Assembly: GCA_025839675.1 (NCBI GenBank)
Contig: CP104013.1
Coordinates: forward strand, 5,550,001-5,582,000
Direction: 5' to 3'
From: Candidatus Lokiarchaeum ossiferum
GTDB taxonomy: Archaea > Asgardarchaeota > Lokiarchaeia > Sigyniarchaeales > Promethearchaeaceae
Length of the DNA: 32,000 nt
Part shown: positions 1 to 19,896 of the stretch, piece by piece
Layout: the number at the start of each line of letters is the position of its first letter
Numbering within the stretch: position 1 is the stretch's first letter
Notes under the pieces: generated by a model
Databases searched by the model: none
Told to the model about the DNA's origin: nothing
The model's input: only the letters and a program-made list of their open reading frames with translations
Translations under genes and position numbers: made by a program

Positions 1-1389
1 GATTATACTAATTTCTACCATTTCATTTCAAAACGTTTTGACAATTATCGTCATGTTATCAATTATAAAGTTGAAGGACAGATCCAATTTCATTCTATAA
101 TCTACATTCCAGAAACTAAATCACAAGATTTAATGCGTCCAGAAGCCGAACATGGATTTGGTTTGTTTTCAAAAAATGTGATGATTATGGAAAAATGCCA
201 AGATTTGATGCCCCAATGGATGCGTTTTGCAGTTGGAATGGTAGATTCTGAAGATATTCCATTAAATGTTAGTCGGGACACTATCCAAAGTAATCGTAAA
301 ATGATGAAAATGGAAACCATGTTGGTGAAGAAGTTCATCAAAGAACTTGAATCCTTAGCAGAAAATGAAGAAGAAAAATATCTCAAAATTTGGAATGAAT
401 ATGGTACATTCTTCAAGGAAGGCGTTGTTTCCGATCAGATTCGCAAGGATAAACTACTTCCCCTCCTAAGATTCAAATCTTCAAAAACTCCACACGATAA
501 AATGATTGGTTTAGATACATACATCAAAAATATGGCTGAAGATCAAACAGAAATTTACTATCTTGTTGGGGAAAATATTGATACAATGCGGTTATCTCCT
601 CATTTAGGGTATTATAATCAAAAGGGATATGATGTATTATTGCTCAATGAAGTCATTGACAACTTTTTAATGATGAACGTTCCTGATTATACTACTACAA
701 TTGGCGAAGGAGACGATGCTGAGGATAAATTATTCAAATTTACTCCTATAGATGTGACCGAAAAAGATAAATCTGCCGATGGGGATAAAAAAGAAGGTGA
801 AGACAGCAAAGAAGAAGAAACAAAAGAAGAAGATATTGATTTACCTGAAGAATCTAAAAAATTCTTAGAATTTGTGAAGGAAACCTTAGGGTCTAAGATT
901 ATAGATTCAAAAATGTCTAAACGTTTATATTCCAATGCTTACCGATTAGCAAATCCTGCAGGTGGAATGACTTCTAGCATGCAACGAGCAATGCGTTATT
1001 GGACTCAATCGAACATGGGAAAAGATTTTCAAGTACCTCAAAAAATTCTCGAGTTCAATCCCGACCATCCAACTGTGCAAGGATTAGTGGAGTTATATTC
1101 CAAAGATCCCGAAAATGGTAAATTAAAGCCGATTATTAATCAATTATTTGAAAATTGTTTGCTTGCAGAAGGTGATTTGCCTAATCCATCATTAATGGTA
1201 CCCCGATTGAATCAATTAATTGAAATGATGATCACCGGGAAAGATGATGTCGAAAATATGGCTGAAACTATGGCTCCAAAAGAAGAACCTGCTGGAGAAA
1301 AACCTTCCAAAGAAGAACCAACCAAAGAAGAACCAACCAAAGAAGAACCAACCAAAGAAGAAGGGACAAAAACTGAACAAGAGAGTTAG
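1..1389 (+). CDS. htpG: Hsp90-family chaperone HtpG, middle and C-terminal domains; 5' end lies outside the window
   Basis: Frame 1 is open from nt 1 (DYTNFYHFISKRF..VEGQIQFHSIIYIPE) and continuous with track ORF 133..1389. Hsp90 hallmarks present: GMVDSEDIPLNVSRD, LLRFKSS, EIYYLVGEN, LEFNPDHP, LLAEGDLPNPSLMVPRLNQLI. Colinear with bacterial-type HtpG; no MEEVD terminus. Confidence 0.9.
   Translation, partial: DYTNFYHFISKRFDNYRHVINYKVEGQIQFHSIIYIPETKSQDLMRPEAEHGFGLFSKNVMIMEKCQDLMPQWMRFAVGMVDSEDIPLNVSRDTIQSNRKMMKMETMLVKKFIKELESLAENEEEKYLKIWNEYGTFFKEGVVSDQIRKDKLLPLLRFKSSKTPHDKMIGLDTYIKNMAEDQTEIYYLVGENIDTMRLSPHLGYYNQKGYDVLLLNEVIDNFLMMNVPDYTTTIGEGDDAEDKLFKFTPIDVTEKDKSADGDKKEGEDSKEEETKEEDIDLPEESKKFLEFVKETLGSKIIDSKMSKRLYSNAYRLANPAGGMTSSMQRAMRYWTQSNMGKDFQVPQKILEFNPDHPTVQGLVELYSKDPENGKLKPIINQLFENCLLAEGDLPNPSLMVPRLNQLIEMMITGKDDVENMAETMAPKEEPAGEKPSKEEPTKEEPTKEEPTKEEGTKTEQES
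1307..1362 (+). repeat. Perfect in-frame 15-bp tandem repeat CCAAAGAAGAACCAA x3 plus an 11-bp partial copy, encoding (KEEPT)n in the HtpG tail
   Basis: Read directly: units at 1307-1321, 1322-1336, 1337-1351, partial 1352-1362. A degenerate copy (ccaaaagaagaacct) lies at 1276-1290. Confidence 0.95.
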
Positions 1390-5147: not shown

Positions 5148-5972
5148 ATGCAATATTTTACTATTGTCCATGTGAGTTCGACAGAAAAATTAATTCAGAT
5201 TTATTACATAAACCCGATAACAAATAAACGCACTCCTCTCAAAATTAAAAGATCCTTAATAGATAATTCTCCCAAAACGCCTGTAGCCATTACCACAATG
5301 AGCGATGAGAACTCACTAACTCTATATGTTGATAAGCAATATAAAGTTCGAGGGGTAGAACAATCAATTTTCCTTGAAACCTCTGAAACTGAACAAAAAC
5401 CGTTAGAAAATATTAAAAAAGATACCGAATGTTATTCTGAGCCTGACAATTTTGGGAAAGTTCTTGTTCTGGGGTTATCAAAAGCTGGTAAAACTTCAAT
5501 CATAAACAGATTAACTAAAAATTTCTTTGCCAAGACAAATCCCACCTTAGGAGTAAATATCATGAAGGCGGTTCTAGATAAAACTAGATTTGTTTTCTAT
5601 GATGTGGGAGGTCAAAAAATGTTACGAAAGAAATGGACTACTACTGTGTCTAATCCTGATGCGATTGTATTTGTTTTTGACATAAATAGTGAGTCAGATC
5701 AAGTTGAAGAAACAAAAATAGAATTTCAACGTGTTATTCAACACTATTTCATTGATACCAATCGTTCCATCCCCGTACTTATATTAGGTAATAAAATAGA
5801 TATCATGGCAAAGCAAAATATCTCAAAACAATCGATAATGTCTGCTTTACTCAGTTTATTTGAGCCTGAATTATACAATTTTAACTATCGCGTTGGTTTG
5901 GTTTCTGCTTTAACTGGAGAAGGGATAAATTATAATTTTAAGTGGTTAATTGCTAAAAATATCATGATTTAA
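5148..5972 (+). CDS. Arf/Sar-like small GTPase with a ~105-aa N-terminal extension
   Basis: G1 GLSKAGKT, G2 NPTLGVN, G3/interswitch FYDVGGQKMLRKKW (Arf-type DVGGQ..R..W), G4 GNKID, G5 SALTGEGI. The extension has no motif I recognise. Alternative in-frame ATG at 5298. Confidence 0.8.
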   Translation: MQYFTIVHVSSTEKLIQIYYINPITNKRTPLKIKRSLIDNSPKTPVAITTMSDENSLTLYVDKQYKVRGVEQSIFLETSETEQKPLENIKKDTECYSEPDNFGKVLVLGLSKAGKTSIINRLTKNFFAKTNPTLGVNIMKAVLDKTRFVFYDVGGQKMLRKKWTTTVSNPDAIVFVFDINSESDQVEETKIEFQRVIQHYFIDTNRSIPVLILGNKIDIMAKQNISKQSIMSALLSLFEPELYNFNYRVGLVSALTGEGINYNFKWLIAKNIMI

Positions 5973-6014: not shown

Positions 6015-7190
6015 TTACTCAATTGGATATATCCCAGTATGAGTAAGCTGAATTATTTTTCCATTCCGGACCATAAAATCATTTTCAATACGTAACCCGC
6101 CAAAATCCTCTTTATATGTTCCAGGTTCTATTGTAAATACATGTCCTTCTTCGAGAAGAACTTCCTTCCAGTATTTCTTCTGAAAATCGTCAGTAGGTTT
6201 TTTGGAAATAAATGGTGCATCATGTTCTGATAAACCCAATCCGTGACCAAGTGCATAGGGCATTGAAAAACCCGCTTCAGTTAATACGTCCATTGATGCT
6301 TTATTAATTTTCCATAGTGGTATTCCAATTTCCATTGTTTCTACTGCTGCATCATAGGCTTTTTGAGTGATATCGCGCATTCTTTGTTGTTCTTGATTAA
6401 TATCTCCGAAGGTGAACGATTGCGTAATATCTGAATTATATCCTTTGTATTTAGCTCCGAAATCTATTAGTGCTAATCCGGGAAGTGCAAATTGAGATTC
6501 TGTTGCATATGGGTGGCAATGAAGTGTGTGAGATCGATTAGTATTTGCAACTAAAGAAGGAAAGGCTAAATCCTCCGCACCTCTTTTTGCCATCTTGGTT
6601 TGAACTAAAAAGCTCAAATCTTGTTCCGATTCGGTAGTGGCATTTTTTGCAAAGTGAATTATATCTTGAAGGGTATCTTCTGCAATTTTGGTTGCTTCCA
6701 TTAAAAGATCCATTTCATGATTGCTCTTAGTGGCTCGTAATTCTTCAAAAAGTCGAGAAATTTTACTTGGTTCCTTTGTGAATTTTAATTCTGGAAACAT
6801 TGTTTCAAATCGAATAATCTCCCCATATAGCATTCCACGAGAAACTCCAATGGATGCATTTGGCTTTTTTAAGATATTTTCAAAATAATCCCTTGAAGTT
6901 TTTATGGTGCTATATTCATATTGAGTATGATCTAAAATACGATCAACATCCGCCTCCGTTTTTGCTAAAGCTGTATCCCAAGGTATTAAAGTTGTTTCTC
7001 CCCCAGCAGTTATAAAAAGAATACCATCAGTTGGATGTCCACAAATATATTGAAAATTTAAATCACGTGATTGTTCACTATCGGTTATCATGATGAGATC
7101 TAATTTCTCAGTTTCCATGAATTTTAACAAAAGTTCCAGTTTTTCATTGGTAATTGATTTCATTCTATCATGAAACAATGTGATTTCCAT
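6015..7190 (-). CDS. M24 family Xaa-Pro aminopeptidase/dipeptidase (creatinase-like N-domain + pita-bread fold)
   Basis: C-terminal half has M24B-type motifs LIDFGAKYKGYNSDITQSF, GHGLGLSEHD, FTIEPGTY, GLRIEND. Confidence 0.85.
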   Translation of the reverse strand: MEITLFHDRMKSITNEKLELLLKFMETEKLDLIMITDSEQSRDLNFQYICGHPTDGILFITAGGETTLIPWDTALAKTEADVDRILDHTQYEYSTIKTSRDYFENILKKPNASIGVSRGMLYGEIIRFETMFPELKFTKEPSKISRLFEELRATKSNHEMDLLMEATKIAEDTLQDIIHFAKNATTESEQDLSFLVQTKMAKRGAEDLAFPSLVANTNRSHTLHCHPYATESQFALPGLALIDFGAKYKGYNSDITQSFTFGDINQEQQRMRDITQKAYDAAVETMEIGIPLWKINKASMDVLTEAGFSMPYALGHGLGLSEHDAPFISKKPTDDFQKKYWKEVLLEEGHVFTIEPGTYKEDFGGLRIENDFMVRNGKIIQLTHTGIYPIE

Positions 7191-7284: not shown

Positions 7285-8412
7285 TTAAAAGAAAATATTG
7301 GTAAAATCAAATACATTTTTGAAGATATCCTCCAAATTACCAACCAAACGAGCACCTTTGTAATATTCCATGAAAGTGTGTTTATCTTCAATAACTCCTA
7401 AATTTGGTGCTAAAGAAAACCAATCCGCTTGCAATTTTTCTCCTTTGAATCGAAATTTTTGAATTAATTGCATCATTTCGTTATTAAGGCCCATAGCAGG
7501 GGCCCGTTCAACCACATTTTTCCTTATATGATCCGCTAATTCGGAATAAATTTCAAGCAAGGATTTGAAATATTGAATCAAAAAGTCCCGTAATGCGATT
7601 TCATTAAAAAACTCATTCATTTCAAAAAGTGTAGATGCAATTTCCTTGAGTGAATCTCCTACGTCCTCGATCAATTTGGCTAAAAGGCGCAAGTCTATAA
7701 GTTTTTTATGTGAATAGTTTAGAGGTTTAGATATTTGGGGATTTTCAAAAATTGTTCGAATCTGTCGCACTATGAAGAAATAGTATCGATCAATTTTTTG
7801 ATCTTGTTGCTCAATTTCTTGTAAATTGGAATAATCTTCGTTCTCCATCGCTGTTAGTATATCCTCTAACATCCATAATAAAATACTAAAACTTTCACGC
7901 AGATAACGGGGAATTTCTTCTTGAAAAATATTTTCAGGGGTTTCGGAGAATATATTTTTTATCAATAATTTACGGCTGGAAACTCGATTTAGATTCCAAT
8001 TAAATAACAAACGAGTTTGAGTCTTTTCTATCTGATCAATAAATTCTTTAGGGATTGGCTGTTTGCTTTGAATTTCAATACCCGATGCTCCATTCATATA
8101 ATAACTAATTAAAATAAGGCTGATACCTTTTTCATTTATAATATTTGGATTTTGTTTGAGTAGATCATCCAATTCCAGAAGAAAGATCTGCTCTTTGGAT
8201 TTAATTTTTTCTTTTAATGGAAAAATACCCAAACTACCATCGGGGTTTTCAAAGATATTAACTGCTGGATCCTTAGAAGAACCATTTTTTTCTTTTTTCT
8301 CTAAATGATTTTTTTTGATCCAGTGAATTGGGAGAGTTACAGCGTAGGAATATTTAGCAAAGCTTTGGATTTTCCGTTGGTGCATTTCCATTATTAATAA
8401 ATTATAGTACAT
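7285..8412 (-). CDS. AbrB/SpoVT-domain plus PhoU-like regulator (archaeal phosphate-uptake-regulator type)
   Basis: N-terminus YSYAVTLPIHWIKKNHL..DGSLGIFP looks like a SpoVT/AbrB swapped-hairpin domain. The rest is long helical repeats as in archaeal PhoU homologs. The real start may be the internal Met at 8391 or 8385. Confidence 0.5.
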   Translation of the reverse strand: MYYNLLIMEMHQRKIQSFAKYSYAVTLPIHWIKKNHLEKKEKNGSSKDPAVNIFENPDGSLGIFPLKEKIKSKEQIFLLELDDLLKQNPNIINEKGISLILISYYMNGASGIEIQSKQPIPKEFIDQIEKTQTRLLFNWNLNRVSSRKLLIKNIFSETPENIFQEEIPRYLRESFSILLWMLEDILTAMENEDYSNLQEIEQQDQKIDRYYFFIVRQIRTIFENPQISKPLNYSHKKLIDLRLLAKLIEDVGDSLKEIASTLFEMNEFFNEIALRDFLIQYFKSLLEIYSELADHIRKNVVERAPAMGLNNEMMQLIQKFRFKGEKLQADWFSLAPNLGVIEDKHTFMEYYKGARLVGNLEDIFKNVFDFTNIFF

Positions 8413-8504: not shown

Positions 8505-9416
8505 TTACTTCTTCAAAAGAATTTTGTGGAGTTTTTGGGCCATTTCTTTAGATTCTGCCCAAACCGAGCAAATCCAATCTGTTGTGTTTTGAGCTGGAAA
8601 AGTAATCATTTCTCCTAATGATTTATTATCTTTATAGGAAATTTCAATGATTGATTTAATTTCATTGTTTTGATCATTCAAGATACCATCAGAAATTTGT
8701 CCTGATTGTAAATCTCGATTTTTTGCATCAATAAAATGCTTTTTTTCTAATTTATACTGAAATTTTCTTCCATCAGCATTGTAGGAGTGGATACGGCTCA
8801 ATAATGATTTTTGAAATTGCTCCTGCTCCATTTGGCAATAGATTATTCCACCATAGATAATAGAATCTGCCTCTTTTTCTTCAAACTCGATGGCGTGAAA
8901 TCGAAAATTAATCTCTTCTTTTCGTAATGCAATTATCACATTTGTTTCTACCTTGAGTAAATTCCAAGCATATTGCCCTAATATTGAATTTACTAAGTTT
9001 TTTACAAATTGGGGTGCTTTTTGTGGAATTTGAAGGTTCTGTTGAGGTGTATCTCTCTCATTTGCATCTAGTTTTTTATAGATATCCAGAACTTCATAAA
9101 AATTTGCTTTCTGTTTCTGAAACTGGTCTTGGGACTGAATGATAATACGATCTAAATTTTGTTGAAAAATTCGCTTTGGTACCTTGGTATATATGAGGGG
9201 ATCTTTAGATTTACATTGTATCCAATTGTTAGACACGAGTTGTTTTAATTGTGAATAAATCCATGGTCCTTTTTTTCTTAATTGAGATGGAAGTTCTTTT
9301 AGTATTTCAGAAGCTTTCAATGGCCCTTTTTGCATGGTTATTAGAATTATTTCTGAATGAGTTGGAGAGAGATTATATGCTTGTAATAAAGTTCTGAAAT
9401 GATCTAGATTTTTCAT
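8505..9416 (-). CDS. TrmB-like winged-helix transcriptional regulator (putative)
   Basis: N-terminal LLQAYNLSPTHSEIILITMQKGPLKASEILKEL..IYSQLKQLVSNNWIQ matches the TrmB-type wHTH pattern. The C-terminal domain is unrecognised. The track start at 9437 is TTG, so I prefer the ATG at 9416. Confidence 0.45.
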   Translation of the reverse strand: MKNLDHFRTLLQAYNLSPTHSEIILITMQKGPLKASEILKELPSQLRKKGPWIYSQLKQLVSNNWIQCKSKDPLIYTKVPKRIFQQNLDRIIIQSQDQFQKQKANFYEVLDIYKKLDANERDTPQQNLQIPQKAPQFVKNLVNSILGQYAWNLLKVETNVIIALRKEEINFRFHAIEFEEKEADSIIYGGIIYCQMEQEQFQKSLLSRIHSYNADGRKFQYKLEKKHFIDAKNRDLQSGQISDGILNDQNNEIKSIIEISYKDNKSLGEMITFPAQNTTDWICSVWAESKEMAQKLHKILLKK

Positions 9417-9535
9417 AATTTCCAAAAGAATAATCAATTAATCTACCAAAAAACTTTATGAATTTAATAAAAAATACCTTCTTAGTTATTTTTTGCAAGA
9501 GAATCTATTTTAATTTTAGAAAAACTAAATATATC

Positions 9536-10096
9536 ATGAACATAAGTGAAGCTAAAGAAGTACTTGGGGAAGGTTTTCAACGTGACGCAGATTTTATCAC
9601 AAAAATCCTCGATACGTTGGTACTCTCACCAAAACAAAGAATATTGGATATAGGAACGGGACGCGGATTTATGGCAATCCATCTTGCATTAAAAGGGTTA
9701 AATGTTGAATCTGGGGAGCCAGAAAAAGATAATTGGGCCGATTGGCGGACAAATGCTAAAATGGTTAAGGTGCAAAACAAAATTCATTTTACGCCTTTTA
9801 GTGCTACTGCAATTCCATTTGAGAATGATTTCTTTGATTACGTCTTTCTAAGTAATTCATTTCATCATATTGACGAAAAACAAAAGGCTTTAAATGAAAT
9901 TAACCGGGTACTAAAAGATTCTGGAAAGATTGTGATTCTTGAATTCAATAAAAAAGGGGTAGAACGTGTTCGATCCCAAAGGCCAAACCATCCCGATGCT
10001 GTAGATCCTCTAACTATTCCTGTAGATTTTGAGGTTACAAGTGAAATTATCGAAGAAGAGTTCAGCAATGCATATATCTTTACTGTTCACAAGTAA
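9536..10096 (+). CDS. Class I SAM-dependent methyltransferase
   Basis: Motif I ILDIGTGRGFMAIHLA, post-I acidic residue, motif FDYVFLSNSFHH, GKIVILEF. I prefer the ATG at 9536 over the track start 9458, which would leave only 20 bp to the divergent gene. Confidence 0.75.
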   Translation: MNISEAKEVLGEGFQRDADFITKILDTLVLSPKQRILDIGTGRGFMAIHLALKGLNVESGEPEKDNWADWRTNAKMVKVQNKIHFTPFSATAIPFENDFFDYVFLSNSFHHIDEKQKALNEINRVLKDSGKIVILEFNKKGVERVRSQRPNHPDAVDPLTIPVDFEVTSEIIEEEFSNAYIFTVHK

Positions 10097-10097
10097 A

Positions 10098-11048
10098 TTA
10101 ATCCTTACACCATTCGCGCATTGAAAAACTCATTTTTTCCAACTCCGGATCAATTAACTGTCGAAATTTCCCATTGACCACATTGAAAATGGAAGGAGAT
10201 ATTTTTTCTAAATGGGCTCTCGCCTCTAAAACGTTTGCTTTAAAATTTTCTTCTCCTAAACCGAACACCATCATTACAGGAAAAACTTCCATTTGTCCGG
10301 GACCAATTGAAGGGATGTGCCATTGTAAACCAACTGCACATTCGGCAGGTCCTTTTCTATTGCAATCTTTTAAATTTAATCTCTCTGGTGTAATCAAAAG
10401 ATCTTGTGGGGCATTACACTCGAAATGTGTTGGGATGTTATCGTTTATTGTCCCAATACCGACAATGGGACTTAGTTGTTTCCCTTCCTGGGCATCATAT
10501 TGAAATGCAATATTCAATTTTTCATCGTACTCGGCGCTATCTGTTTTATATCCTTCTTCTCCATTAATATCAAAATCATAAAACTGATAGAAATTAAAAT
10601 TCCTAAGAGGATCATGAGTTGAATTCCTGAAAGAGTAGAACATTAGAATATATGGTTTATCATGATAACGATAAATATCAACGTATTCTAACACTCTGGG
10701 ATCAGGACGTTCTGGTTGAATTTTTTTTTTAACAATTTCGGGGTGATATTGAGGAGAATAGAGATAAGTAAAACGAGTTATTGTGCTATCATTGTTGCGC
10801 TTTGCATTAATCATTGTAAATAGAGGTGTTTTCTGAGCCACCCCCAAATGATGTGAGTTTTCTAAACTGCGAATTAAAATTGGAATTTCCTTATATTCAA
10901 AGGCGATACATGGACCATTCAAATATCTCGTAGGGATATCCATGACTGTTCGATTTTTGTATTTAATAGTTTTGAAAGTATATCCAAAAGAATAGCCTTT
11001 TTCCTTACAGTTAACGCAAACTGTTTCGTAATCAACAAGAACATCCAT
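10098..11048 (-). CDS. Hypothetical protein; weak resemblance to the non-catalytic N-terminal beta-sandwich domain of GH15 glucoamylase/trehalase-type proteins
   Basis: 316-aa ORF with ATG start, 64 bp downstream of the GTPase gene on the same strand. NFNFYQFYDFDINGEEGYKTDSAEYDEKLNIAFQY and ECAVGLQWHIPSIGPGQMEVFPVMMVFG recall the GH15 N-domain pattern as I remember it. There is no (alpha/alpha)6 catalytic domain. The functional call is low confidence. Confidence 0.7.
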   Translation of the reverse strand: MDVLVDYETVCVNCKEKGYSFGYTFKTIKYKNRTVMDIPTRYLNGPCIAFEYKEIPILIRSLENSHHLGVAQKTPLFTMINAKRNNDSTITRFTYLYSPQYHPEIVKKKIQPERPDPRVLEYVDIYRYHDKPYILMFYSFRNSTHDPLRNFNFYQFYDFDINGEEGYKTDSAEYDEKLNIAFQYDAQEGKQLSPIVGIGTINDNIPTHFECNAPQDLLITPERLNLKDCNRKGPAECAVGLQWHIPSIGPGQMEVFPVMMVFGLGEENFKANVLEARAHLEKISPSIFNVVNGKFRQLIDPELEKMSFSMREWCKD

Positions 11049-11112
11049 ATTCCTTCATATGCTATAATGGAAAATCCAATAAAAAGAAATGAGTTTTAAA
11101 AAAACGTGTTAT

Positions 11113-12090
11113 TTAAAGTGTTTCACAGAACTTGTAGCCAGCATATTGAAAAGCATCGTCTACATTGTCTCCGGTTTTAGCTGAAGTTAAAATATAACCG
11201 CATTTAAGTTCATCAGCTTTCAATTTTATTTCTTCTTCTGTAACTTCAATGTTTTGGAGATCTATTTTATTGCCTAAAATGAAATAATTAATATTCTTCT
11301 TCATAACGGATTTGGCATCTTCCACCCATTTATCAATATTCTCAAAGGTTTTTTTTCTCGTCATATCACAAACAAGGAAGCATTGATTTGCTCCAAAATA
11401 AAATCGTTTCGTGAAGGGTGCAGCCGATGCATGTTTCATCTGTCCCGCTATGTCCCAAATTGCCAGATTTATTTTACATTCTTTGTTTAATTCGACAAGT
11501 TTCCGAGAAATATCTACTCCAATTGTACTAATATATGAATCTGCAAACTTATTGTCGACGAATCTTCGAATCAAACTTGTTTTCCCTACGGCAGGATCTC
11601 CTAACACAATTATTTTTGAGTTATATTCTCCTTTTGGAAGTTTTCCGCCCCTCATCTTGGCTAAAACACTCACAATAGCTGGGATCGATATGTCGACTTC
11701 TTCTCCTTTCAAAATATGTTTTATTTTTCGAGCAACATGCTCACCATATACTTTTAGTTGATTATCATCTGCCTTCAAATCTGCTATCAATGTTAAAATA
11801 GCGTTCTCGCCTGCATCAGCAAAAACAAATTTTTTATTCTCCACAGACATAATACTTACAAAACTCTCTGTGGACCCAAAATCCTTTTTAACTCGATTTA
11901 TAAAAGTATCAAAAACCGCCGTAACAGTGCCAATAATGTCTTCTTCTGCTGCCGGATCCCTCAACATGCTTGCAATGATTAAACCATCATGATCCACAAT
12001 TGCTGCAGCTGTAATTTCTTCAATCGTTTGCATGATGTTAGAAATTAAACTGCTAAATAATTCATGGGTGCTCATTTTTCTTAAATCCAT
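11113..12090 (-). CDS. Roadblock/LC7 (MglB-like) domain fused to a Rab/Ras-like small GTPase
   Basis: Residues ~10-125 (ITAAAIVDHDGLIIASML..FVSIMSVENKKFVFADAGENAILTLIAD) fit Robl_LC7. The G domain starts at ~aa 158: G1 GDPAVGKT, G2 YISTIGVD, G3 WDIAGQ, G4 GNKIDL, G5 TSAKTG. Confidence 0.85.
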   Translation of the reverse strand: MDLRKMSTHELFSSLISNIMQTIEEITAAAIVDHDGLIIASMLRDPAAEEDIIGTVTAVFDTFINRVKKDFGSTESFVSIMSVENKKFVFADAGENAILTLIADLKADDNQLKVYGEHVARKIKHILKGEEVDISIPAIVSVLAKMRGGKLPKGEYNSKIIVLGDPAVGKTSLIRRFVDNKFADSYISTIGVDISRKLVELNKECKINLAIWDIAGQMKHASAAPFTKRFYFGANQCFLVCDMTRKKTFENIDKWVEDAKSVMKKNINYFILGNKIDLQNIEVTEEEIKLKADELKCGYILTSAKTGDNVDDAFQYAGYKFCETL

Positions 12091-12120
12091 TTATTTTAAT
12101 CCTTTGTATTGCTATAAACT

Positions 12121-14220
12121 TTATTCATTACTCCCTTGTGAATTCTTATAATAGAAATTTAAATTTTGCTTTTTTATTGAGTTTTCTCGATTAAAACGAC
12201 CAATTCTAACAAATGTTTCCAACCATATACCTAATTTTCCTACCATCATTCCCCAAAACCGACGATTGTGAAAACCATCATGCCTCGAAGCTATGGTACG
12301 GGGAAAATATTTGATTATTCTCTTTGGTCGATCAAACTGATCAAAAAGACCTCTGGTGTCATATAAATGTTTTGAATTTGCTTTCTCTTGAATTATTCGA
12401 TGATCTCGAAAATTGGCTAAAAACCAACCTGCAACAAAAGGCTTAGCGTTATAGAGTTGAATTTGCTTAAGCACATGTCTTAATGGATGCTCATTTGATT
12501 CATTCTTGTATGATAATCCAAATTCTGTAATTATTATGGGTTTTTGGTAAGAAGAATAAAACATGGTTTCCAAATACAAGTTAATGATTGAAGGTAATGA
12601 TTTTTGTCTATTTCTTGGAAAAACTATTCCTGTGCAGTCCGTATTCTTGCTTACGGTGTTTTTCGTTATTCGTTCAGTAGGGTTGATGATTAAACGCGTA
12701 GGATCGCTCTGTCTAATATAATCTATCAATTGATTCAAAAATTGATTACAATTTCGGTTTTCGATTGGTAATTTATATCCAATTGACCAACAAATTATGG
12801 AGGGATTATTGAAATCTCGCATTAAAATGGCGTCAATGGCTTGTTTTACTAAAATCTTGGAAGTTTTTAATGCAAAATTGATATTTCCATAAAACGGGAG
12901 TTCTTCAACTATTAACATGCCTTCTTCATCAGCTATCTCGCATAACGAAATATCGTGAGGATAATGTCCTGTCTTTATTGCATTGAACCCTAATGCTTTA
13001 ATGTTTAAAATATCTCGTCTTCTCACTTTTTTAGGAATTGCTCGTCCCCATTTATCACTTTCTTCATGGAGATTTATACCTCTTAGTGTAATTGGATGGT
13101 TATTCAGGTAAATATGTTCCTTAATTCGTTTGATCTCCCGTATTCCAAAGCGAATGAACTTATCTTCATCTATTCCATGAAGTTGAAGAACTAATTCATA
13201 TAAATCTGGATGATCAGGTGTCCAGAGAGCGGGTTTTTTCACATTTATTTGAAACGAGTTTGATAGTTTTTCTTCTTCTTGAAATTTAAATAATCCATCA
13301 TCTGTCTCAGAGAAATCTCCTTGTAATTTTGTTGGTTTCTCAGAAATTGACATCTTTGCATCCGAATATTCTTCCCGACCGGAGAAATATGTTTCCAAAT
13401 CAATGGGTTCATCAAAAGATTCTTCTGAAATTAATATATCCGAGAAATATCCCGATAGAGCTTGGGGATCATGAGCAATTTTTTCTAAGGGTTTTAAAGA
13501 TTCTGGATTAATATCTTGAATACCTGTTTGGATCAAAACTTTGTTAGATTGGCGAGCTCCCCCAAAAATTCTTCCTAAGTAAAATAGTTCGTACTCTATT
13601 TGAGGCTCTTTTTGTTCTGCATAACATCGATCTAAAAATTCTTGAGGATTTTTAAGTATATAATCTACTTTAATGGTTGCAAAATCAGCCGATCGATTTG
13701 GGATGGAAGATTGAATTTTAATTTGTTTCACTCGGGTTTTTTCCAAAACAAGAAGTTGCACTCTTCGATAAATACCACTCCAATTAAACCACGGTATATT
13801 GTTACTTGGAATCCCATTTGGGCTTAAGGATGTATCCACACGAACTGTTAGAAAATTGTCATGGGAAAAGGATAACATTTTTGGGGTAAAACCAAAGCGA
13901 AATGGAAAAAATCCTCCCTCATGTGAACCAATTTTGTATCCGTTCAACCAAACCTCTGCAAAATTATTCACTCCTTCAAATTCTATTGAATACTCGTGAG
14001 ATTTTGGGCGATAGGGCATTTCTGGAAGTTTTAAATAATACCAAATCACTCCTCCAAATTGTTCTAAGCCCTTGATTATGTTTATGTTGGATGGAATCGT
14101 TATTTTTCTTCCCTTGTTCATATTTTTTTCGATCCAAGTGGAAGAAAACCACCGTTGTTCATTTCCTTCATTGTTTTCATCAATGAAAAAGGTCCATGTT
14201 CCATCTAAGTTAATGTCCAA
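12121..14220 (-). CDS. Glycoside hydrolase family 2-like protein (beta-glucuronidase/galactosidase-type) with divergent acid/base motif
   Basis: GH2 sugar-binding domain: DGTWTF..IWYYLKL..FEGVNNFAEVWLNGYKIGSHEGGFFPF. Ig-like domain end: ALWTPDHPDLYEL. TIM barrel: GFNAIKTGHYPHD, PIIITEFG, TRGLFDQFDRPK. The start codon is TTG with a GAGG-like motif about 9 nt upstream and no in-frame ATG upstream. Confidence 0.8.
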   Translation of the reverse strand: MDINLDGTWTFFIDENNEGNEQRWFSSTWIEKNMNKGRKITIPSNINIIKGLEQFGGVIWYYLKLPEMPYRPKSHEYSIEFEGVNNFAEVWLNGYKIGSHEGGFFPFRFGFTPKMLSFSHDNFLTVRVDTSLSPNGIPSNNIPWFNWSGIYRRVQLLVLEKTRVKQIKIQSSIPNRSADFATIKVDYILKNPQEFLDRCYAEQKEPQIEYELFYLGRIFGGARQSNKVLIQTGIQDINPESLKPLEKIAHDPQALSGYFSDILISEESFDEPIDLETYFSGREEYSDAKMSISEKPTKLQGDFSETDDGLFKFQEEEKLSNSFQINVKKPALWTPDHPDLYELVLQLHGIDEDKFIRFGIREIKRIKEHIYLNNHPITLRGINLHEESDKWGRAIPKKVRRRDILNIKALGFNAIKTGHYPHDISLCEIADEEGMLIVEELPFYGNINFALKTSKILVKQAIDAILMRDFNNPSIICWSIGYKLPIENRNCNQFLNQLIDYIRQSDPTRLIINPTERITKNTVSKNTDCTGIVFPRNRQKSLPSIINLYLETMFYSSYQKPIIITEFGLSYKNESNEHPLRHVLKQIQLYNAKPFVAGWFLANFRDHRIIQEKANSKHLYDTRGLFDQFDRPKRIIKYFPRTIASRHDGFHNRRFWGMMVGKLGIWLETFVRIGRFNRENSIKKQNLNFYYKNSQGSNE

Positions 14221-14328: not shown

Positions 14329-16209
14329 TTAATCCGCTGAAGGTTGATCGGGAGATGGTTCGGATGGTGCATCTTCTGGATTGCCTTCCTCAGCTTCAGG
14401 GGCAGGCATCTCCCAAGGCGCCATTGGAGGTTCATAATCTGCCATCTCTCCAAGTATTTGTTCTGCAATGATTTTTCCTTCTTTGGAAGGTTGTTTTATG
14501 GCTTGTTGAATCAAAAATTTGGCCGATTCTTCATTAAATTCATATTTAAACATTTTTCCTTCATTCTGGGATAATAGGGATGTATATTTTGCCCCACCAG
14601 TCCCTTCAGGAACAATTAATAAGGCGACATCTACTGAATTTGTTGAGATTGCTTGGGTTAACCGTTTTGCGGCATAAAATGCTGCTACTCCTCCGCTTTT
14701 ATCAAAAGACTTGACTGCGGGGATTTCCAATCCGTATTTTTTCCCTTCAAACTCGATCACTCCTGCCAAACTATAGGATCGTTTTCCGACTTGAAATTTG
14801 AAATCCATATCAATATTGATCTTTTTATTAAACTTCTCGGCTAACACTTTAATGGATTTCAAGGCTGCTCCTGCTACAGATGCGGGATTCGCTTCGATGG
14901 TGTAATCCTCATCCTTCATCATTTCTTCGATCTTATCAATTATCGATTTCTCTTCTTTCGTGCTTGGCGCTGTAGCTGGCACGGCATCGGGAATTGCTGT
15001 GGTTGTTCCGACTGGCACTGCATCGGATTTGCCTGATTGAATGACCTCTTCCAACGTCATCTCATCATACACGATTTTATCGACAAATAATCGGATTAAT
15101 TTAATGATGGATCGTTGGTTGCCATCTGTTTTATCAAAAATGACTTTCAAGACCTGTTCATTCAACGGAAAGAGTGGATAAATTGGCGGGTTTAGGTTAT
15201 TTTTTGCCCAGAAATATTCCATCGCTTTAGCAAAATAGAGTTTTAAATCATCAAACTTGAAAAATTCCAATTCTCGTTCTTGTTCCATCCTAGATTTCAT
15301 GGCTTGATCGGCGGTTTCCAAAACTCGCGGCCAGATTTCTTTTAATACTGCAAGCACAATTACAACATTTTTAACATTATTATATACTTGTTTTAAGGTT
15401 TCTAAGAACTTCTGTTCTGCTTCTGGTCCGTGCATCCTGTAGGGACTCTCTAACTCATCAAAATAAAGAACTATTGAACGTCCTGCATTTTCGCAAATAA
15501 GTTTAATCATTGCTAGGCAGACATCATCGGATTCGATCACGGTGTTGATACCGAGGACATCGAGTTCATCTTCATCGAGGTCTTCGCCAAGCAACCATCG
15601 TTCCGCGAGGCCTTGTCGTTCTTTATCAAGGGCAAAAATACAAAGGGATTTAACGCAATCGGCGAAAATACCGGGGTATTCACGAATTCCGTTCTGGATG
15701 GTTTCTTCTAAATCTTGGCCACCGAAGATACCGAGTTTTTTCTTTTTATGACCTCCCCAGCGGGTAACAAGGTTATCCGAAACAACGGTGAGGATATCGG
15801 CGGTAAGTTCATCCAATAAACAGGTATAAACATGTAATAAGATACGGACAGCGGCAGGGGGGCTGGGGACATAGACAATAGTCCATTGTTCGGGATAATT
15901 ACCTGCGACATTGGCGTCTTCCTGATCTTCTTGCGTTAATCGGCGTTCAATACTTTTATAAGCCCAATAGGCGTGAGTTTTACCGGTACCGGCAGAACCA
16001 AGGATAGGAAGCATGCGGGCGGAGGAATCGGATTGAGTTTGTCGAATGGATCGGAATAAATAGCGATCGATATTAATCCGGGGGCCTGGAATGTCTACGG
16101 TATCTTCCATTTTTCCACGGGCGACAAATCTATCAAAGGGGGTGGTGCCATCCCGCAAAACATCAAGATATAATTCTTGCTCGTCTTCATTCATTTGAGA
16201 AAATGCCAT
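14329..16209 (-). CDS. P-loop (AAA+-like) ATPase with unclassified C-terminal domain and acidic Pro-rich tail
   Basis: Walker A GSAGTGKTH, Walker B IVLYFDELE. A lid-like segment, FDKTDGNQRSIIKLIRLF, resembles the GDAR sensor-2 region of Orc1/Cdc6-type AAA+ proteins. Then come a low-complexity linker (AVPVGTTTAIPDAVPATAPS), a ~170-aa C-terminal domain, and the tail EPPMAPWEMPAPEAEEGNPEDAPSEPSPDQPSAD. Confidence 0.75.
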   Translation of the reverse strand: MAFSQMNEDEQELYLDVLRDGTTPFDRFVARGKMEDTVDIPGPRINIDRYLFRSIRQTQSDSSARMLPILGSAGTGKTHAYWAYKSIERRLTQEDQEDANVAGNYPEQWTIVYVPSPPAAVRILLHVYTCLLDELTADILTVVSDNLVTRWGGHKKKKLGIFGGQDLEETIQNGIREYPGIFADCVKSLCIFALDKERQGLAERWLLGEDLDEDELDVLGINTVIESDDVCLAMIKLICENAGRSIVLYFDELESPYRMHGPEAEQKFLETLKQVYNNVKNVVIVLAVLKEIWPRVLETADQAMKSRMEQERELEFFKFDDLKLYFAKAMEYFWAKNNLNPPIYPLFPLNEQVLKVIFDKTDGNQRSIIKLIRLFVDKIVYDEMTLEEVIQSGKSDAVPVGTTTAIPDAVPATAPSTKEEKSIIDKIEEMMKDEDYTIEANPASVAGAALKSIKVLAEKFNKKINIDMDFKFQVGKRSYSLAGVIEFEGKKYGLEIPAVKSFDKSGGVAAFYAAKRLTQAISTNSVDVALLIVPEGTGGAKYTSLLSQNEGKMFKYEFNEESAKFLIQQAIKQPSKEGKIIAEQILGEMADYEPPMAPWEMPAPEAEEGNPEDAPSEPSPDQPSAD

Positions 16210-16588
16210 TTTTTTTTTTCACTTCACGTAATGTAAGTAACTTCTCTTTTACTATTATAAATATATTACCTTCCTTCCTCTATAATTGTTTTGGCCTAAA
16301 AGAAAAAGGATAAGCTTTGAAAGACAGTATTTTTTTTGGGGAACGATACAATTCAACGATGAACAATTTTTGATGTAGATGAAATGACAAGGAATTATTT
16401 TAAATTGAGTTTTTTTTATTTAGAAGAAAAAACATTTCCACCAATCCCTTAAAGAAATGAAATATAGGAAGAATTGGTGAGAGAAAGAATGAAATGCGGA
16501 GAGTACAAAAAGATCTGATGTAGGTGAAGACCAATAATTATAGAAGAATAAAAAAAAGAAATATTCATTTAAAGAATATTTTTTGGTA

Positions 16589-17311
16589 ATGAAGAACCAT
16601 TGTTCTATGAGTAAGTTCATGACACCTGATCACAAGAAAAAGAAAAAAAATGACGACGATGATATCGACGATAATGATCCCTTTGGCCTGGGTGAAGATT
16701 TCTACGAAATGATGAATGATCAGTTGAAGAAAGCCTTTTCACAATTTCCAGGTATGAATTTTGGGAACATGAACTTTAGTTCTGATTCAATGAAGAAAAT
16801 GTATGCAGATATTTTACGAAAAATGAATATCGATCCAAAAAAAATGCAAAATATGTCTCCCGAAGATATTCAGAAAATGATGGCCAATAGTAAAATGGGA
16901 TTTCAAGGACCTTTCGTTTTTGGTATGAATGTGGGAGTTGGTCCTGATGGAAAACCCATTGCAACTCCTTTTGGGAATGTTAGGTCTGAAACCCGTGGAG
17001 AGCCGGATCTAAGGGCAGAAAGAGATCCATTGATTGATATTTACGAAGAGGATGGTGAACTTGTTGTTGTAGGGGAAGTTCCTGGGGTTGATAAGAAAGA
17101 CATTGAACTTCGGGCTTCGGCTCACGAATTGGAAATCATTGCAGAATCTCCCGATACTGGTTCACATTCCCGGAAATATCATAAAATTGTTGCTCTTCCT
17201 GCAGAAATCAATCCCGATATTGCCAAAGCGCGATATAATAATGGAATTTTGGAAGTCCGTTTGGAAAAATTAGAAAAAGTAGCCTCCAAGAAGAAAATCC
17301 ATATCGATTAA
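16589..17311 (+). CDS. Small heat-shock protein (Hsp20/alpha-crystallin family) with long Met-rich N-terminal extension
   Basis: Alpha-crystallin domain: DIYEEDGELVVVGEVPGVDKKDIELRA..YHKIVALPAEINPDIAKARYNNGILEVRLEK. The track start 16583 is TTG. The first ATG is at 16589, and ATGs at 16607 or 16619 are also possible. Confidence 0.85.
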   Translation: MKNHCSMSKFMTPDHKKKKKNDDDDIDDNDPFGLGEDFYEMMNDQLKKAFSQFPGMNFGNMNFSSDSMKKMYADILRKMNIDPKKMQNMSPEDIQKMMANSKMGFQGPFVFGMNVGVGPDGKPIATPFGNVRSETRGEPDLRAERDPLIDIYEEDGELVVVGEVPGVDKKDIELRASAHELEIIAESPDTGSHSRKYHKIVALPAEINPDIAKARYNNGILEVRLEKLEKVASKKKIHID

Positions 17312-18642: not shown

Positions 18643-19104
18643 TTATTCACATATTTCTAAAAATGGAAGGACTTTATCTTGATTTTTTGCTTTCGACAAA
18701 ATTTCATTATTTAAAATACGTTTTAATCGATAATACTCTGCAAGAGCTTCTTCATAGCTTTGATTTGGATATCGTCGGGCTAACGCGATATCTCGGCGTG
18801 TGCACCCGCCTTGTCGCATGCAGCAATAACTCAAAGATCCAAAGCAAGTTTCGCTATAATCCCATTGATGTTTTTGCGAAAAATCTTCTTTGATTTTAAT
18901 AAATTCTTGAGGGTCCATTCCAATTTCTTTTAACTTAGTATCACGCAGACATTTGTAGCCAAAAGTTAGAGAATGGCCTGGTTTGCAACAAAAAGTTAAA
19001 GATCGAACATCTCCGCCTAAACAAGCGGGTACTGGAGCCATTTCCCAGTTCGGAAGATCTCTTAAAAACTTCTTTGAAATCTTTGCGATTGTATCATTAC
19101 TCAC
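18643..19104 (-). CDS. Cysteine-rich hypothetical protein (probable metal or Fe-S binding)
   Basis: 153 aa with 9 Cys, including two CC pairs (C-x11-CC and C-x7-CC-x5-C). GTG start preceded by GAGGA 5 nt upstream. Family not recognised. Confidence 0.6.
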   Translation of the reverse strand: MSNDTIAKISKKFLRDLPNWEMAPVPACLGGDVRSLTFCCKPGHSLTFGYKCLRDTKLKEIGMDPQEFIKIKEDFSQKHQWDYSETCFGSLSYCCMRQGGCTRRDIALARRYPNQSYEEALAEYYRLKRILNNEILSKAKNQDKVLPFLEICE

Positions 19105-19166: not shown

Positions 19167-19218
19167 AAAGAAACTAGGAAAATTGAAAAATTTCCCAAGC
19201 TTATTCGAAGTGATTTTA

Positions 19219-19896
19219 ATGGAAGATTACAAAAAAGAATTTATTGAATTTATGGTTCAATCAAAAGTGTTGATTTTTGGGGATTTTATGACCAAAAGTG
19301 GACGCAAAACACCCTATTTTGTTAATACAGGCAAGTATCGAACAGGTTCTCAGATGAAGAAACTAGGAAAGTTTTATGCTGAAGCCATTCGTAATAATTT
19401 TGAAGAAAATGTTGATGTTTTATTCGGTCCAGCCTATAAAGGGATTCCTTTAGTAGTGACGACTTCTATTGCTTTATCTGAACATTTTAATCAAGATGTA
19501 TCCATCTGTTTTAATCGAAAAGAAGCAAAGGATCATGGAGAAGGCGGAAATTTCATCGGGAAAAAATTGGAAGATGGGGACAAAGTAATCATTGTTGAGG
19601 ATGTAACTACTGCGGGGACTTCTATTCGTCAATCCGTCCCAATGTTAAATAAAGCCGCTTTTGTTCAGTTAAAGGGACTTGTAGTATCTGTTGATCGTAT
19701 GGAAAAAGGAAAAACTAAGAAAGGGGCATTAGTTGAACTTGCAGATCAATTCAACATGAAAACTTGTGCCATAGTAACTTTAGATGAAATTATTGAACAT
19801 TTACATAACAATCCAATCGAAGGTAAAGTAATTATTGATGATAATATGAAGCAAAGAATTGATGAATATCGTGCAATTTATGGCTGTCAAAACTAA
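19219..19896 (+). CDS. pyrE: Orotate phosphoribosyltransferase
   Basis: FGDFMTKSGRKTPYFVNTG, GPAYKGIPL, and PRPP-binding loop VIIVEDVTTAGTS. The track start 19183 is TTG, so I prefer ATG 19219 (MEDYKKEFIEF). Confidence 0.9.
   Translation: MEDYKKEFIEFMVQSKVLIFGDFMTKSGRKTPYFVNTGKYRTGSQMKKLGKFYAEAIRNNFEENVDVLFGPAYKGIPLVVTTSIALSEHFNQDVSICFNRKEAKDHGEGGNFIGKKLEDGDKVIIVEDVTTAGTSIRQSVPMLNKAAFVQLKGLVVSVDRMEKGKTKKGALVELADQFNMKTCAIVTLDEIIEHLHNNPIEGKVIIDDNMKQRIDEYRAIYGCQN

Follow-up and report, generated by a model that had tools for sequence, protein, structure and literature searches.

Which proteins does a eukaryote-like small GTPase of an Asgard archaeon work with, and can the answer be read from the genes that lie beside its own? 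The question is raised by a stretch of 32,000 nucleotides from the genome of Candidatus Lokiarchaeum ossiferum (hereafter the window, in whose positions coordinates are given unless another locus is named), where three minus-strand open reading frames (ORFs) stand in close succession: a 699-amino acid (aa) protein derived from glycoside hydrolase (GH) family 2 with a TTG start (12121..14220), a 325-aa Roadblock-GTPase fusion (11113..12090) and a 316-aa protein (10098..11048) that is 100% identical to NEF87_004727. The ORFs lie exactly where a preliminary description of this DNA had placed them, with 30 bp between the GH2-like and GTPase genes and 64 bp between the GTPase and 316-aa genes. All three are real genes, since their orthologs show ratios of non-synonymous to synonymous substitution (dN/dS) of 0.02-0.23. 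As set out below, the trio recurs in the same order in related genomes, and we lean, with modest confidence, towards reading it as a conserved functional cassette specific to Lokiarchaeales whose products are functionally coupled.

Gene neighbourhoods were collected from contig look-ups, a scan of species-representative genomes and a tblastn table; most of the contigs are labelled by NCBI only at phylum level, as “Promethearchaeota”. The order GH2-like, Roadblock-Ras, 316-aa is identical and uninterrupted in 11 of the 11 distinct loci that are long enough (L002/L011, L003/L004, L005/L006, L008, L009, L012, L014-L017 and the window), and three loci that end at a contig edge (L007, L010 and L024) agree as far as they extend. 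The trio is also present in the cultured strain MK-D1 (the ortholog of the window GTPase lies in L016). The 316-aa family, with 37 homolog clusters, and the GH2-like clade, with about 23, carry Lokiarchaeia-type names only, and at least 10 pairs of 316-aa and GH2-like matches stand on contigs of identical size. Recurrence of the gene order, a check named by the preliminary description, is thus found, in every case within Lokiarchaeales. Four other contigs with the gene of the upstream ATPase, of which one is labelled Hodarchaeota, lack the trio downstream of it, and the cassette is restricted to Lokiarchaeales, not general to Asgard archaea.

The order shared by these loci runs from a divergently transcribed HSP20 gene through an AAA+ ATPase, the GH2-like, Roadblock-Ras and 316-aa genes to a TrmB-like gene, a PhoU-domain gene and often OxFMN. 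Identity to the window proteins amounts to 64-73% for the AAA+ ATPase, 51-58% for the Roadblock-Ras GTPase, 43-54% for the 316-aa protein and 39-43% for the GH2-like protein. The gap from the GH2-like gene to the GTPase gene measures 50-61 bp, the exceptions being one locus with 115 bp and the window with 30 bp, and that from the GTPase gene to the 316-aa gene 14-108 bp. Insertions are never found within the trio. They occur at the HSP20/ATPase junction (a gene for a leucine-rich repeat protein), the 316-aa/TrmB-like junction (tetratricopeptide repeat (TPR), GH76 or P-type ATPase genes or, in the window, a methyltransferase), the TrmB-like/PhoU junction (a transposase) and the PhoU/OxFMN junction (several genes).

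The central gene of the trio (assigned from its ORF, Pfam, PDB matches and 13 orthologs) encodes the fusion that had been read from the sequence before, with a Roadblock/LC7 domain at about residues 16-104, a linker and a Rab-like G domain at residues 155-316. The Pfam match to Robl_LC7 (PF03259) covers residues 20-103 (E 3e-5; 24.1 bits, the cut-off being 23), and a precomputed match to this family is listed for the GTPase orthologs in all looked-up loci except L008. The match to Ras covers residues 159-316 at 7e-41, whereas Gtr1_RagA (PF04670) reaches only 1e-5, and the closest PDB relatives of the G domain are Rab1, Rab14, Rab2, Sec4 and a Thorarchaeota Rab (1e-28 to 4e-30). The nucleotide-binding motifs G1 (GDPAVGKTS), switch I (YISTIGVD), G3 (WDIAGQ), G4 (GNKIDL) and G5 (TSAK) are conserved in the 13 orthologs, as is the catalytic Gln of switch II. 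The window protein ends in FCETL, and we considered “CETL” as a CAAX box; this was rejected because the Cys is missing in 12 of 12 orthologs, whose C-termini read KFLEQY, KFIERF or similar, and there is therefore no prenylation motif of the CC, CXC or CAAX type.

The GH2-like protein (assigned from its ORF, Pfam, PDB alignments and an alignment of orthologs and outgroups) has the complete three-domain core of the family, comprising a sugar-binding jelly roll, an Ig-like domain and a (beta/alpha)8 TIM barrel. Glyco_hydro_2_N (PF02837, 9e-16), Glyco_hydro_2 (PF00703, 5e-8) and Glyco_hydro_2_C (PF02836, 2e-30) all match above their cut-offs, and GH2 matches in the PDB go down to E 4e-42. The active site is altered. 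In HMMER alignments “WSIGYK” of the window protein stands opposite the acid/base motif “WSVGNE” of solved GH2 enzymes, and after E. coli LacZ had been added to the alignment and equivalences set by motif context, Y482-K483 occupied the position of LacZ N460-E461, an N-E pair that is present in 15 of 15 outgroup GH2s as well as in LacZ. The alignments with PDB chains, outgroups and LacZ thus agree with the preliminary description that the canonical acid/base pair is lacking. The nucleophile is kept: E566, the equivalent of LacZ E537, lies within “IIITEFG”, whose “TEFG” stands opposite “TEFG” of solved enzymes.

The protein belongs to an orthologous clade with 35-45% identity, labelled throughout as Promethearchaeota or Lokiarchaeota and including MK-D1, beyond which scores fall sharply to ordinary GH2s. 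To survey the active site, columns at least 85% conserved in 15 canonical outgroup GH2s were scored in 23 clade members. Most of these columns, which are of the fold type, are kept in 21-23 of the 23 members. Nine less-retained columns at or near the active-site motifs, which together form the signature HHEWNENEW, are kept in only 4-11 of them. The nucleophile column alone holds Lys in 12 members and Glu in seven, the remainder having Ser, Gln or other residues. The signature is intact in the outgroups P0061-P0064 and in the clade members P0040, P0041, P0042 and P0057; it reads HHEGYKVEA in the window protein and RSDSSDSKH in the MK-D1 subclade, where all nine residues are changed, with S-D at the acid/base pair and Lys in place of the nucleophile Glu, and it has decayed to a different pattern in each of P0050, P0054, P0056, P0058, P0059 and P0060. 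Because the replacement residues differ between lineages, the alignments argue for several independent losses of active-site residues along different paths, on a neighbour-joining tree that is indicative only. The fully degenerate subclade still has a dN/dS of 0.11-0.16, close to the values of the neighbouring genes, so the protein is maintained for something other than canonical hydrolysis, as would suit a pseudoenzyme retained in a non-catalytic role. The earlier view of the protein as non-catalytic stands in so far as the window copy has lost the N-E pair and the MK-D1 clade all nine signature residues, and does not extend to the four orthologs with an intact signature.

One of these four, P0057, stands in a full trio (L009). 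The association is therefore independent of catalytic loss, which it probably preceded; in the nearest outgroup GH2s, P0061 and P0062, the active site is intact and no GTPase gene adjoins. Two further features set the clade apart or touch on its location in the cell. A clade-specific insert of about 90 aa is missing in the outgroups P0061-P0064. A C-terminal tail of about 75 aa (residues ~625-699; 12121-12345) contains a hydrophobic or amphipathic helix, for which the Kyte-Doolittle mean over 19 residues ranges from 1.0 to 2.1 among orthologs; basic residues and, in many cases, a YY motif come after it. The tail occurs in all full-length clade members and in similar form in the nearest outgroup P0061, and not in P0062-P0064. 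It may be a membrane or protein anchor. The N-terminus, read by eye, has no signal-like sequence.

The third protein (assigned from its ORF, homolog clusters, alignment, an AlphaFold2 model and Foldseek) is the least conventional at the sequence level. Its family spans 43-100% identity, and there is no match of the 316-aa protein to Pfam (E <= 0.01) or NCBIfam; comparison with PDB sequences, as a single sequence and as a family profile, returned only unrelated proteins at E 0.07-0.4. An exhaustive hidden Markov model search of 1.84 billion representatives added only a handful of distant full-length relatives and located a core of about 170 aa in further proteins that are either uncharacterised or large and multidomain. 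A metagenome scan aimed at the distant relatives returned one ordinary ortholog on a 1.6-kb contig. The AlphaFold2 model built from the family alignment (predicted local distance difference test (pLDDT) 83.5, predicted template modelling score 0.85) has a beta-sandwich followed by a long C-terminal helix. Searched against the PDB with Foldseek, it gave 95 matches at E <= 1e-3, the best with an E of about 1e-7 and some 10% identity. Nearly all of the top 50 are carbohydrate enzymes, i.e. GH94 phosphorylases, GH116, GH15, GH149, cyclic glucan synthase and a GH174 endo-fucanase, among them the GH15 dextran dextrinase 9ju0 (TMq 0.57), the GH149 structure 6hq6 (0.57) and the GH94 structure 8bou (0.54); YidC is also among the listed matches. 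The element common to these enzymes and the model we take to be their N-terminal beta-supersandwich domain. According to the model, the 316-aa protein is thus a predicted stand-alone beta-supersandwich, such as is found beside the catalytic domains of GH15, GH94 and GH116 enzymes. The resemblance to the GH15 N-domain that had been proposed before therefore holds at the level of the fold; it has no counterpart in sequence, the Pfam profile Glucodextran_N giving no match, and it extends equally to GH94, GH116 and GH149. Two Cys motifs, C11-x-N-C14 and W313-C314, are invariant in 36 aligned family members and present as well in P0197, P0198 and P0201, which are distant homologs. They are located in termini of low pLDDT and might form a metal-binding or partner-binding site.

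How far does the unit extend beyond the trio? Upstream lies the AAA+ ATPase gene (14329..16209, minus strand, 626 aa, Walker A GSAGTGKT; assigned from homologs, gene contexts and an AlphaFold2 model with Foldseek), which is always 5' of the trio in Lokiarchaeales. It belongs to a group of P-loop proteins of 600-650 aa with no Pfam family and no match among PDB sequences; the model resembles ORC/Cdc6/TnsC-like AAA+ proteins in Foldseek and has an extra C-terminal alpha/beta domain. More than 440 homologs exceed 50% identity, most of them labelled Promethearchaeota and a few Hermodarchaeota or Hodarchaeota. The divergently transcribed gene beside it encodes an HSP20/alpha-crystallin protein (16583..17311, plus strand; Pfam HSP20 and gene contexts), and the two are paired in all loci examined, including the four contigs in which no trio follows downstream (L018, labelled Hodarchaeota, L019, L020 and L023). 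Because such contexts exist without the trio, we regard the latter as a Lokiarchaeales-specific unit behind an HSP20-AAA+ pair that is probably separate and older, and the AAA+ ATPase was rejected as a member of the module. The pairing of HSP20 and AAA+ genes may in itself mark an uncharacterised chaperone-linked AAA+ system.

The preliminary description had drawn the boundary towards the ATPase at oligo-T runs. The runs are present 3' of the ATPase stop codon, and the ATPase is a separate unit by its comparative contexts; a T8 run, however, also follows the GTPase stop codon, i.e. inside the trio, so that in this genome of 33% GC T-runs mark no operon boundary and were rejected as such. Rfam and tRNA scans found no RNA genes in the window.

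Downstream, the boundary had been placed at a gene on the opposite strand. That gene is real and encodes a S-adenosylmethionine-dependent methyltransferase (9458..10096, plus strand; Pfam Methyltransf_11) between the 316-aa and TrmB-like genes, but it has no match in any orthologous locus examined and is an insertion seen only in L. ossiferum, outside the module; in most genomes TrmB-like and PhoU genes follow instead. The first of these codes for a 310-aa winged helix-turn-helix protein of the TrmB type (8505..9437, minus strand; assigned from PF01978 matches in orthologs and synteny) and follows the 316-aa gene at a distance of -16 to +161 bp in loci without an insertion there. Five of seven orthologs match TrmB (PF01978; best E 1e-5), the window copy scoring 16.8 bits against a cut-off of 25.6, and the C-terminal part is uncharacterised, with no match to the TrmB sugar-binding domain. 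The protein is probably an associated regulator. The PhoU-domain gene (7285..8412, minus strand, 375 aa; Pfam PhoU 3e-10 and synteny) lies 3' of the TrmB-like gene in all long loci, at 53-131 bp except where a transposase is inserted, and encodes a possible second regulator whose membership of the module is uncertain.

A comparison of two Harpocratesius genomes bears on the tie between the 316-aa and TrmB-like genes. Between L002 (8001-9952) and L003 (8001-9986) the 316-aa genes are 66% and the TrmB-like genes 50% identical, whereas the flanking genes are 90-98% identical. Because the synonymous divergence dS is 1.5 and 1.3 in the two genes as against 0.2-0.5 in their neighbours, the data suggest that they were replaced together by recombination.

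Further genes of the region deserve mention in their own right. The inserts between the 316-aa and TrmB-like genes in L007 (2638-6120) and L009 (7295-12147) both include a TPR protein of about 672 aa, which may be an optional accessory, together with a GH76 gene in one case and a P-type ATPase gene in the other. In the window, two genes lie between PhoU and OxFMN, which directly adjoin in several related genomes: one for an Arf-like small GTPase (5148-5972, plus strand; Pfam Arf 3.5e-32) that is extended at its N-terminus by about 100 aa, the other for a PepQ-like peptidase (6015-7190, minus strand). An ORF near the window's edge (133-1389, plus strand) aligns only with positions 156-510 of an Hsp90 profile that is 518 positions long (6e-75) and does not take in the N-terminal ATPase domain; the gene may be split or frameshifted, or the remainder may lie beyond the edge of the window.

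Several observations weigh against a coupled cassette and have to be set against the conserved order. The first is that the region as a whole is conservative. Some 15 kb are largely collinear, from a 153-aa ORF (18643-19104) to OxFMN, and part of the trio's adjacency may therefore reflect slow rearrangement and not selection for linkage. Possible archaeal-terminator T-runs stand in both flanking intergenic regions. Taken to its end, this argument makes the adjacency passive, the three genes having stayed together only because the region rearranges slowly and the GH2-like protein having acquired its new function independently of the GTPase. The collinearity indeed takes in HSP20, the AAA+ ATPase, TrmB-like, PhoU and OxFMN and often the 153-aa ORF and a 237-aa ORF (19183-19896) as well, and the GTPase genes of MK-D1 generally lie outside operons with regulators (Tran et al, 2024, Commun Biol, PMC10933270). 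Yet every other junction of the region is broken by an insertion in at least one genome and the two junctions within the trio never are, the intergenic gaps there are consistently 14-115 bp, and the trio genes share a narrow phyletic range while the flanking AAA+ gene is found in many more lineages. We therefore consider passive synteny a rather unlikely account of the trio.

The second group of observations concerns catalysis. Besides the nucleophile E566, the window protein still has counterparts of LacZ H357, H391 and E416, and these residues may allow residual or altered chemistry. With the active site complete in the orthologs P0040, P0041, P0042 and P0057, hydrolysis may be of importance to some lineages, and sugar catabolism may simply have been the original role. 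From here it is a short step to an ordinary sugar-utilisation operon, in which a non-canonical glycosidase, transglycosylase or phosphorylase would be accompanied by a carbohydrate-binding beta-sandwich accessory and a sugar-responsive TrmB-like regulator, the GTPase being incidental. The nearest outgroups share the complete active site with the four orthologs, and Pfam names winged helix-turn-helix proteins of the TrmB type as sugar-specific regulators. Such an operon is hard to reconcile with the MK-D1 clade, which has changed nine of nine signature residues and yet is under purifying selection. Nor is a transporter or any other sugar-catabolic gene conserved in the cluster, the TrmB-like protein lacks a match to the TrmB sugar-binding domain, and of the three trio members it is the supposedly incidental GTPase that is the most constant and has been conserved best, with 51-58% identity where the GH2-like protein reaches 39-43%. 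We judge a sugar-utilisation operon to be unlikely. A split GH2 enzyme of the LacLM type, with the 316-aa protein as the small subunit (LacZ domain 5, Bgal_small_N, LacZ residues 754-1020) and the GTPase gene inserted between the two chains, draws on the supersandwich fold of the model, a galactose-mutarotase-like fold which LacZ domain 5 shares with the N-domains of GH15 and GH94 enzymes, and on lacL and lacM being adjacent genes, but is very improbable, as the 316-aa protein has no Pfam match and hence none to PF02929, hhalign, run between its family profile and E. coli LacZ, puts the probability at 0.2% with Bgal_small_N easily detected in LacZ itself, which led us to reject the equivalence at the sequence level, and no LacZ chain occurs among the top 50 Foldseek matches.

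With the conserved functional cassette as the preferred explanation, the three products would most likely work together as follows. The GTPase would be a nucleotide-dependent switch, probably dimerising through its N-terminal Roadblock domain, and the GH2-derived protein would act by binding and not by hydrolysis. Together with the 316-aa protein it would serve as a dedicated partner of the GTPase, either as an effector or as a regulator (a guanine nucleotide exchange factor (GEF) or a GTPase-activating protein (GAP)), in an assembly whose formation or location would depend on GTP or GDP. The GH2 pocket may sense a ligand such as a glycoside, the C-terminal helix may anchor the protein to a membrane or to another protein, and the TrmB-like and PhoU-domain genes may form a transcriptional arm. 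A more specific version, a ligand-gated switch in which the catalytically dead GH2 protein, perhaps together with the supersandwich, binds a glycoside or glycan and thereby serves a dimeric Roadblock-Rab-like GTPase as its GEF, GAP or effector, is a long shot in our estimate, and the earlier idea of a glycan-sensing or membrane-remodelling switch is speculation.

The cassette is of interest because the eukaryote-like small GTPases of Asgard archaea number from dozens to about a hundred, and hardly any can be matched to a regulator or effector (PMC10933270; Liu et al, preprint, 10.1101/2020.10.19.343400), their genes rarely sitting in the conserved operons that would point to partners. Here one Rab-like Roadblock-GTPase gains two candidate partners whose genes are kept adjacent across a clade that holds the closest cultured relatives of eukaryotes. 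As the cassette is present in both cultured Lokiarchaeales, MK-D1 and L. ossiferum, pull-downs, GTPase assays and localisation are possible now. If it does act as a sugar-sensing switch, it would be the first Asgard GTPase-partner set defined by a conserved operon, and in both cultured species. The GH2-like clade is, moreover, a clear case of the passage from enzyme to pseudoenzyme, with active-site decay in several lineages apparently proceeding independently under continued purifying selection; many eukaryotic signalling scaffolds arose by such conversion.

How does the trio compare with systems already known? The closest precedent for the enzyme half is offered by glycosidase-fold pseudoenzymes such as Klotho (GH1) and the chitinase-like lectins (GH18), which were reused for binding or signalling after catalytic loss. 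Like the GH2-like protein they retain a GH fold under selection after losing catalytic residues; unlike it they come from other GH families and from eukaryotes, where they are extracellular, and are not linked to a GTPase.

For the GTPase half, the preliminary description had considered the module undescribed. This is true of the combination, in that full-text literature searches found no description of a GH2-plus-GTPase cassette, but not of the fusion: a Roadblock-GTPase (“RB-GTPase”), with an N-terminal Roadblock fused to a small GTPase domain as in the window, has been reported from MK-D1, where 26 of 74 small GTPases have Roadblock or longin domains (PMC10933270). That work describes the architecture only and does not mention the flanking pair of GH2-derived and supersandwich proteins. 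The architecture is thus already known, whereas glycosidase-derived partners of a small-GTPase/Roadblock module are unprecedented.

Conserved GTPase operons are rare in Asgard archaea (PMC10933270; 10.1101/2020.10.19.343400). One of the few is an operon predicted to encode a LAMTOR1-like protein, a Rab-like GTPase and a DENN-domain protein, conserved in most Asgard archaea (10.1101/2020.10.19.343400). Both are conserved Asgard neighbourhoods that join a Rab-like GTPase, a Roadblock-superfamily protein and a putative regulator. The partners in that operon, however, are DENN and LAMTOR1-like proteins, i.e. components of the eukaryotic GEF type, while in the cassette described here a single chain holds the Roadblock and G domains, carbohydrate enzymes are the source of the partners and the distribution is limited to Lokiarchaeales.

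The MglA/MglB polarity switch of Myxococcus and Thermus likewise couples a Ras-superfamily GTPase genetically to a Roadblock protein. There, MglB is a separate GAP protein, whereas the trio has its Roadblock domain in one chain with a GTPase whose G domain gives its best scores with Rab proteins. The Rag/Gtr GTPases with Ragulator differ in domain order, the G domain coming first in Rag and the Roadblock domain first in the trio GTPase, and no Ragulator- or GATOR-like partners are present beside the latter. They nevertheless provide the most attractive functional analogy: both combine G and Roadblock domains in one chain, Roadblock dimerisation, which is probable in the trio GTPase, and a logic of nutrient sensing would be further points in common, and if the trio does constitute a sugar-sensing switch, it would represent a prokaryotic counterpart of Rag-Ragulator nutrient signalling.

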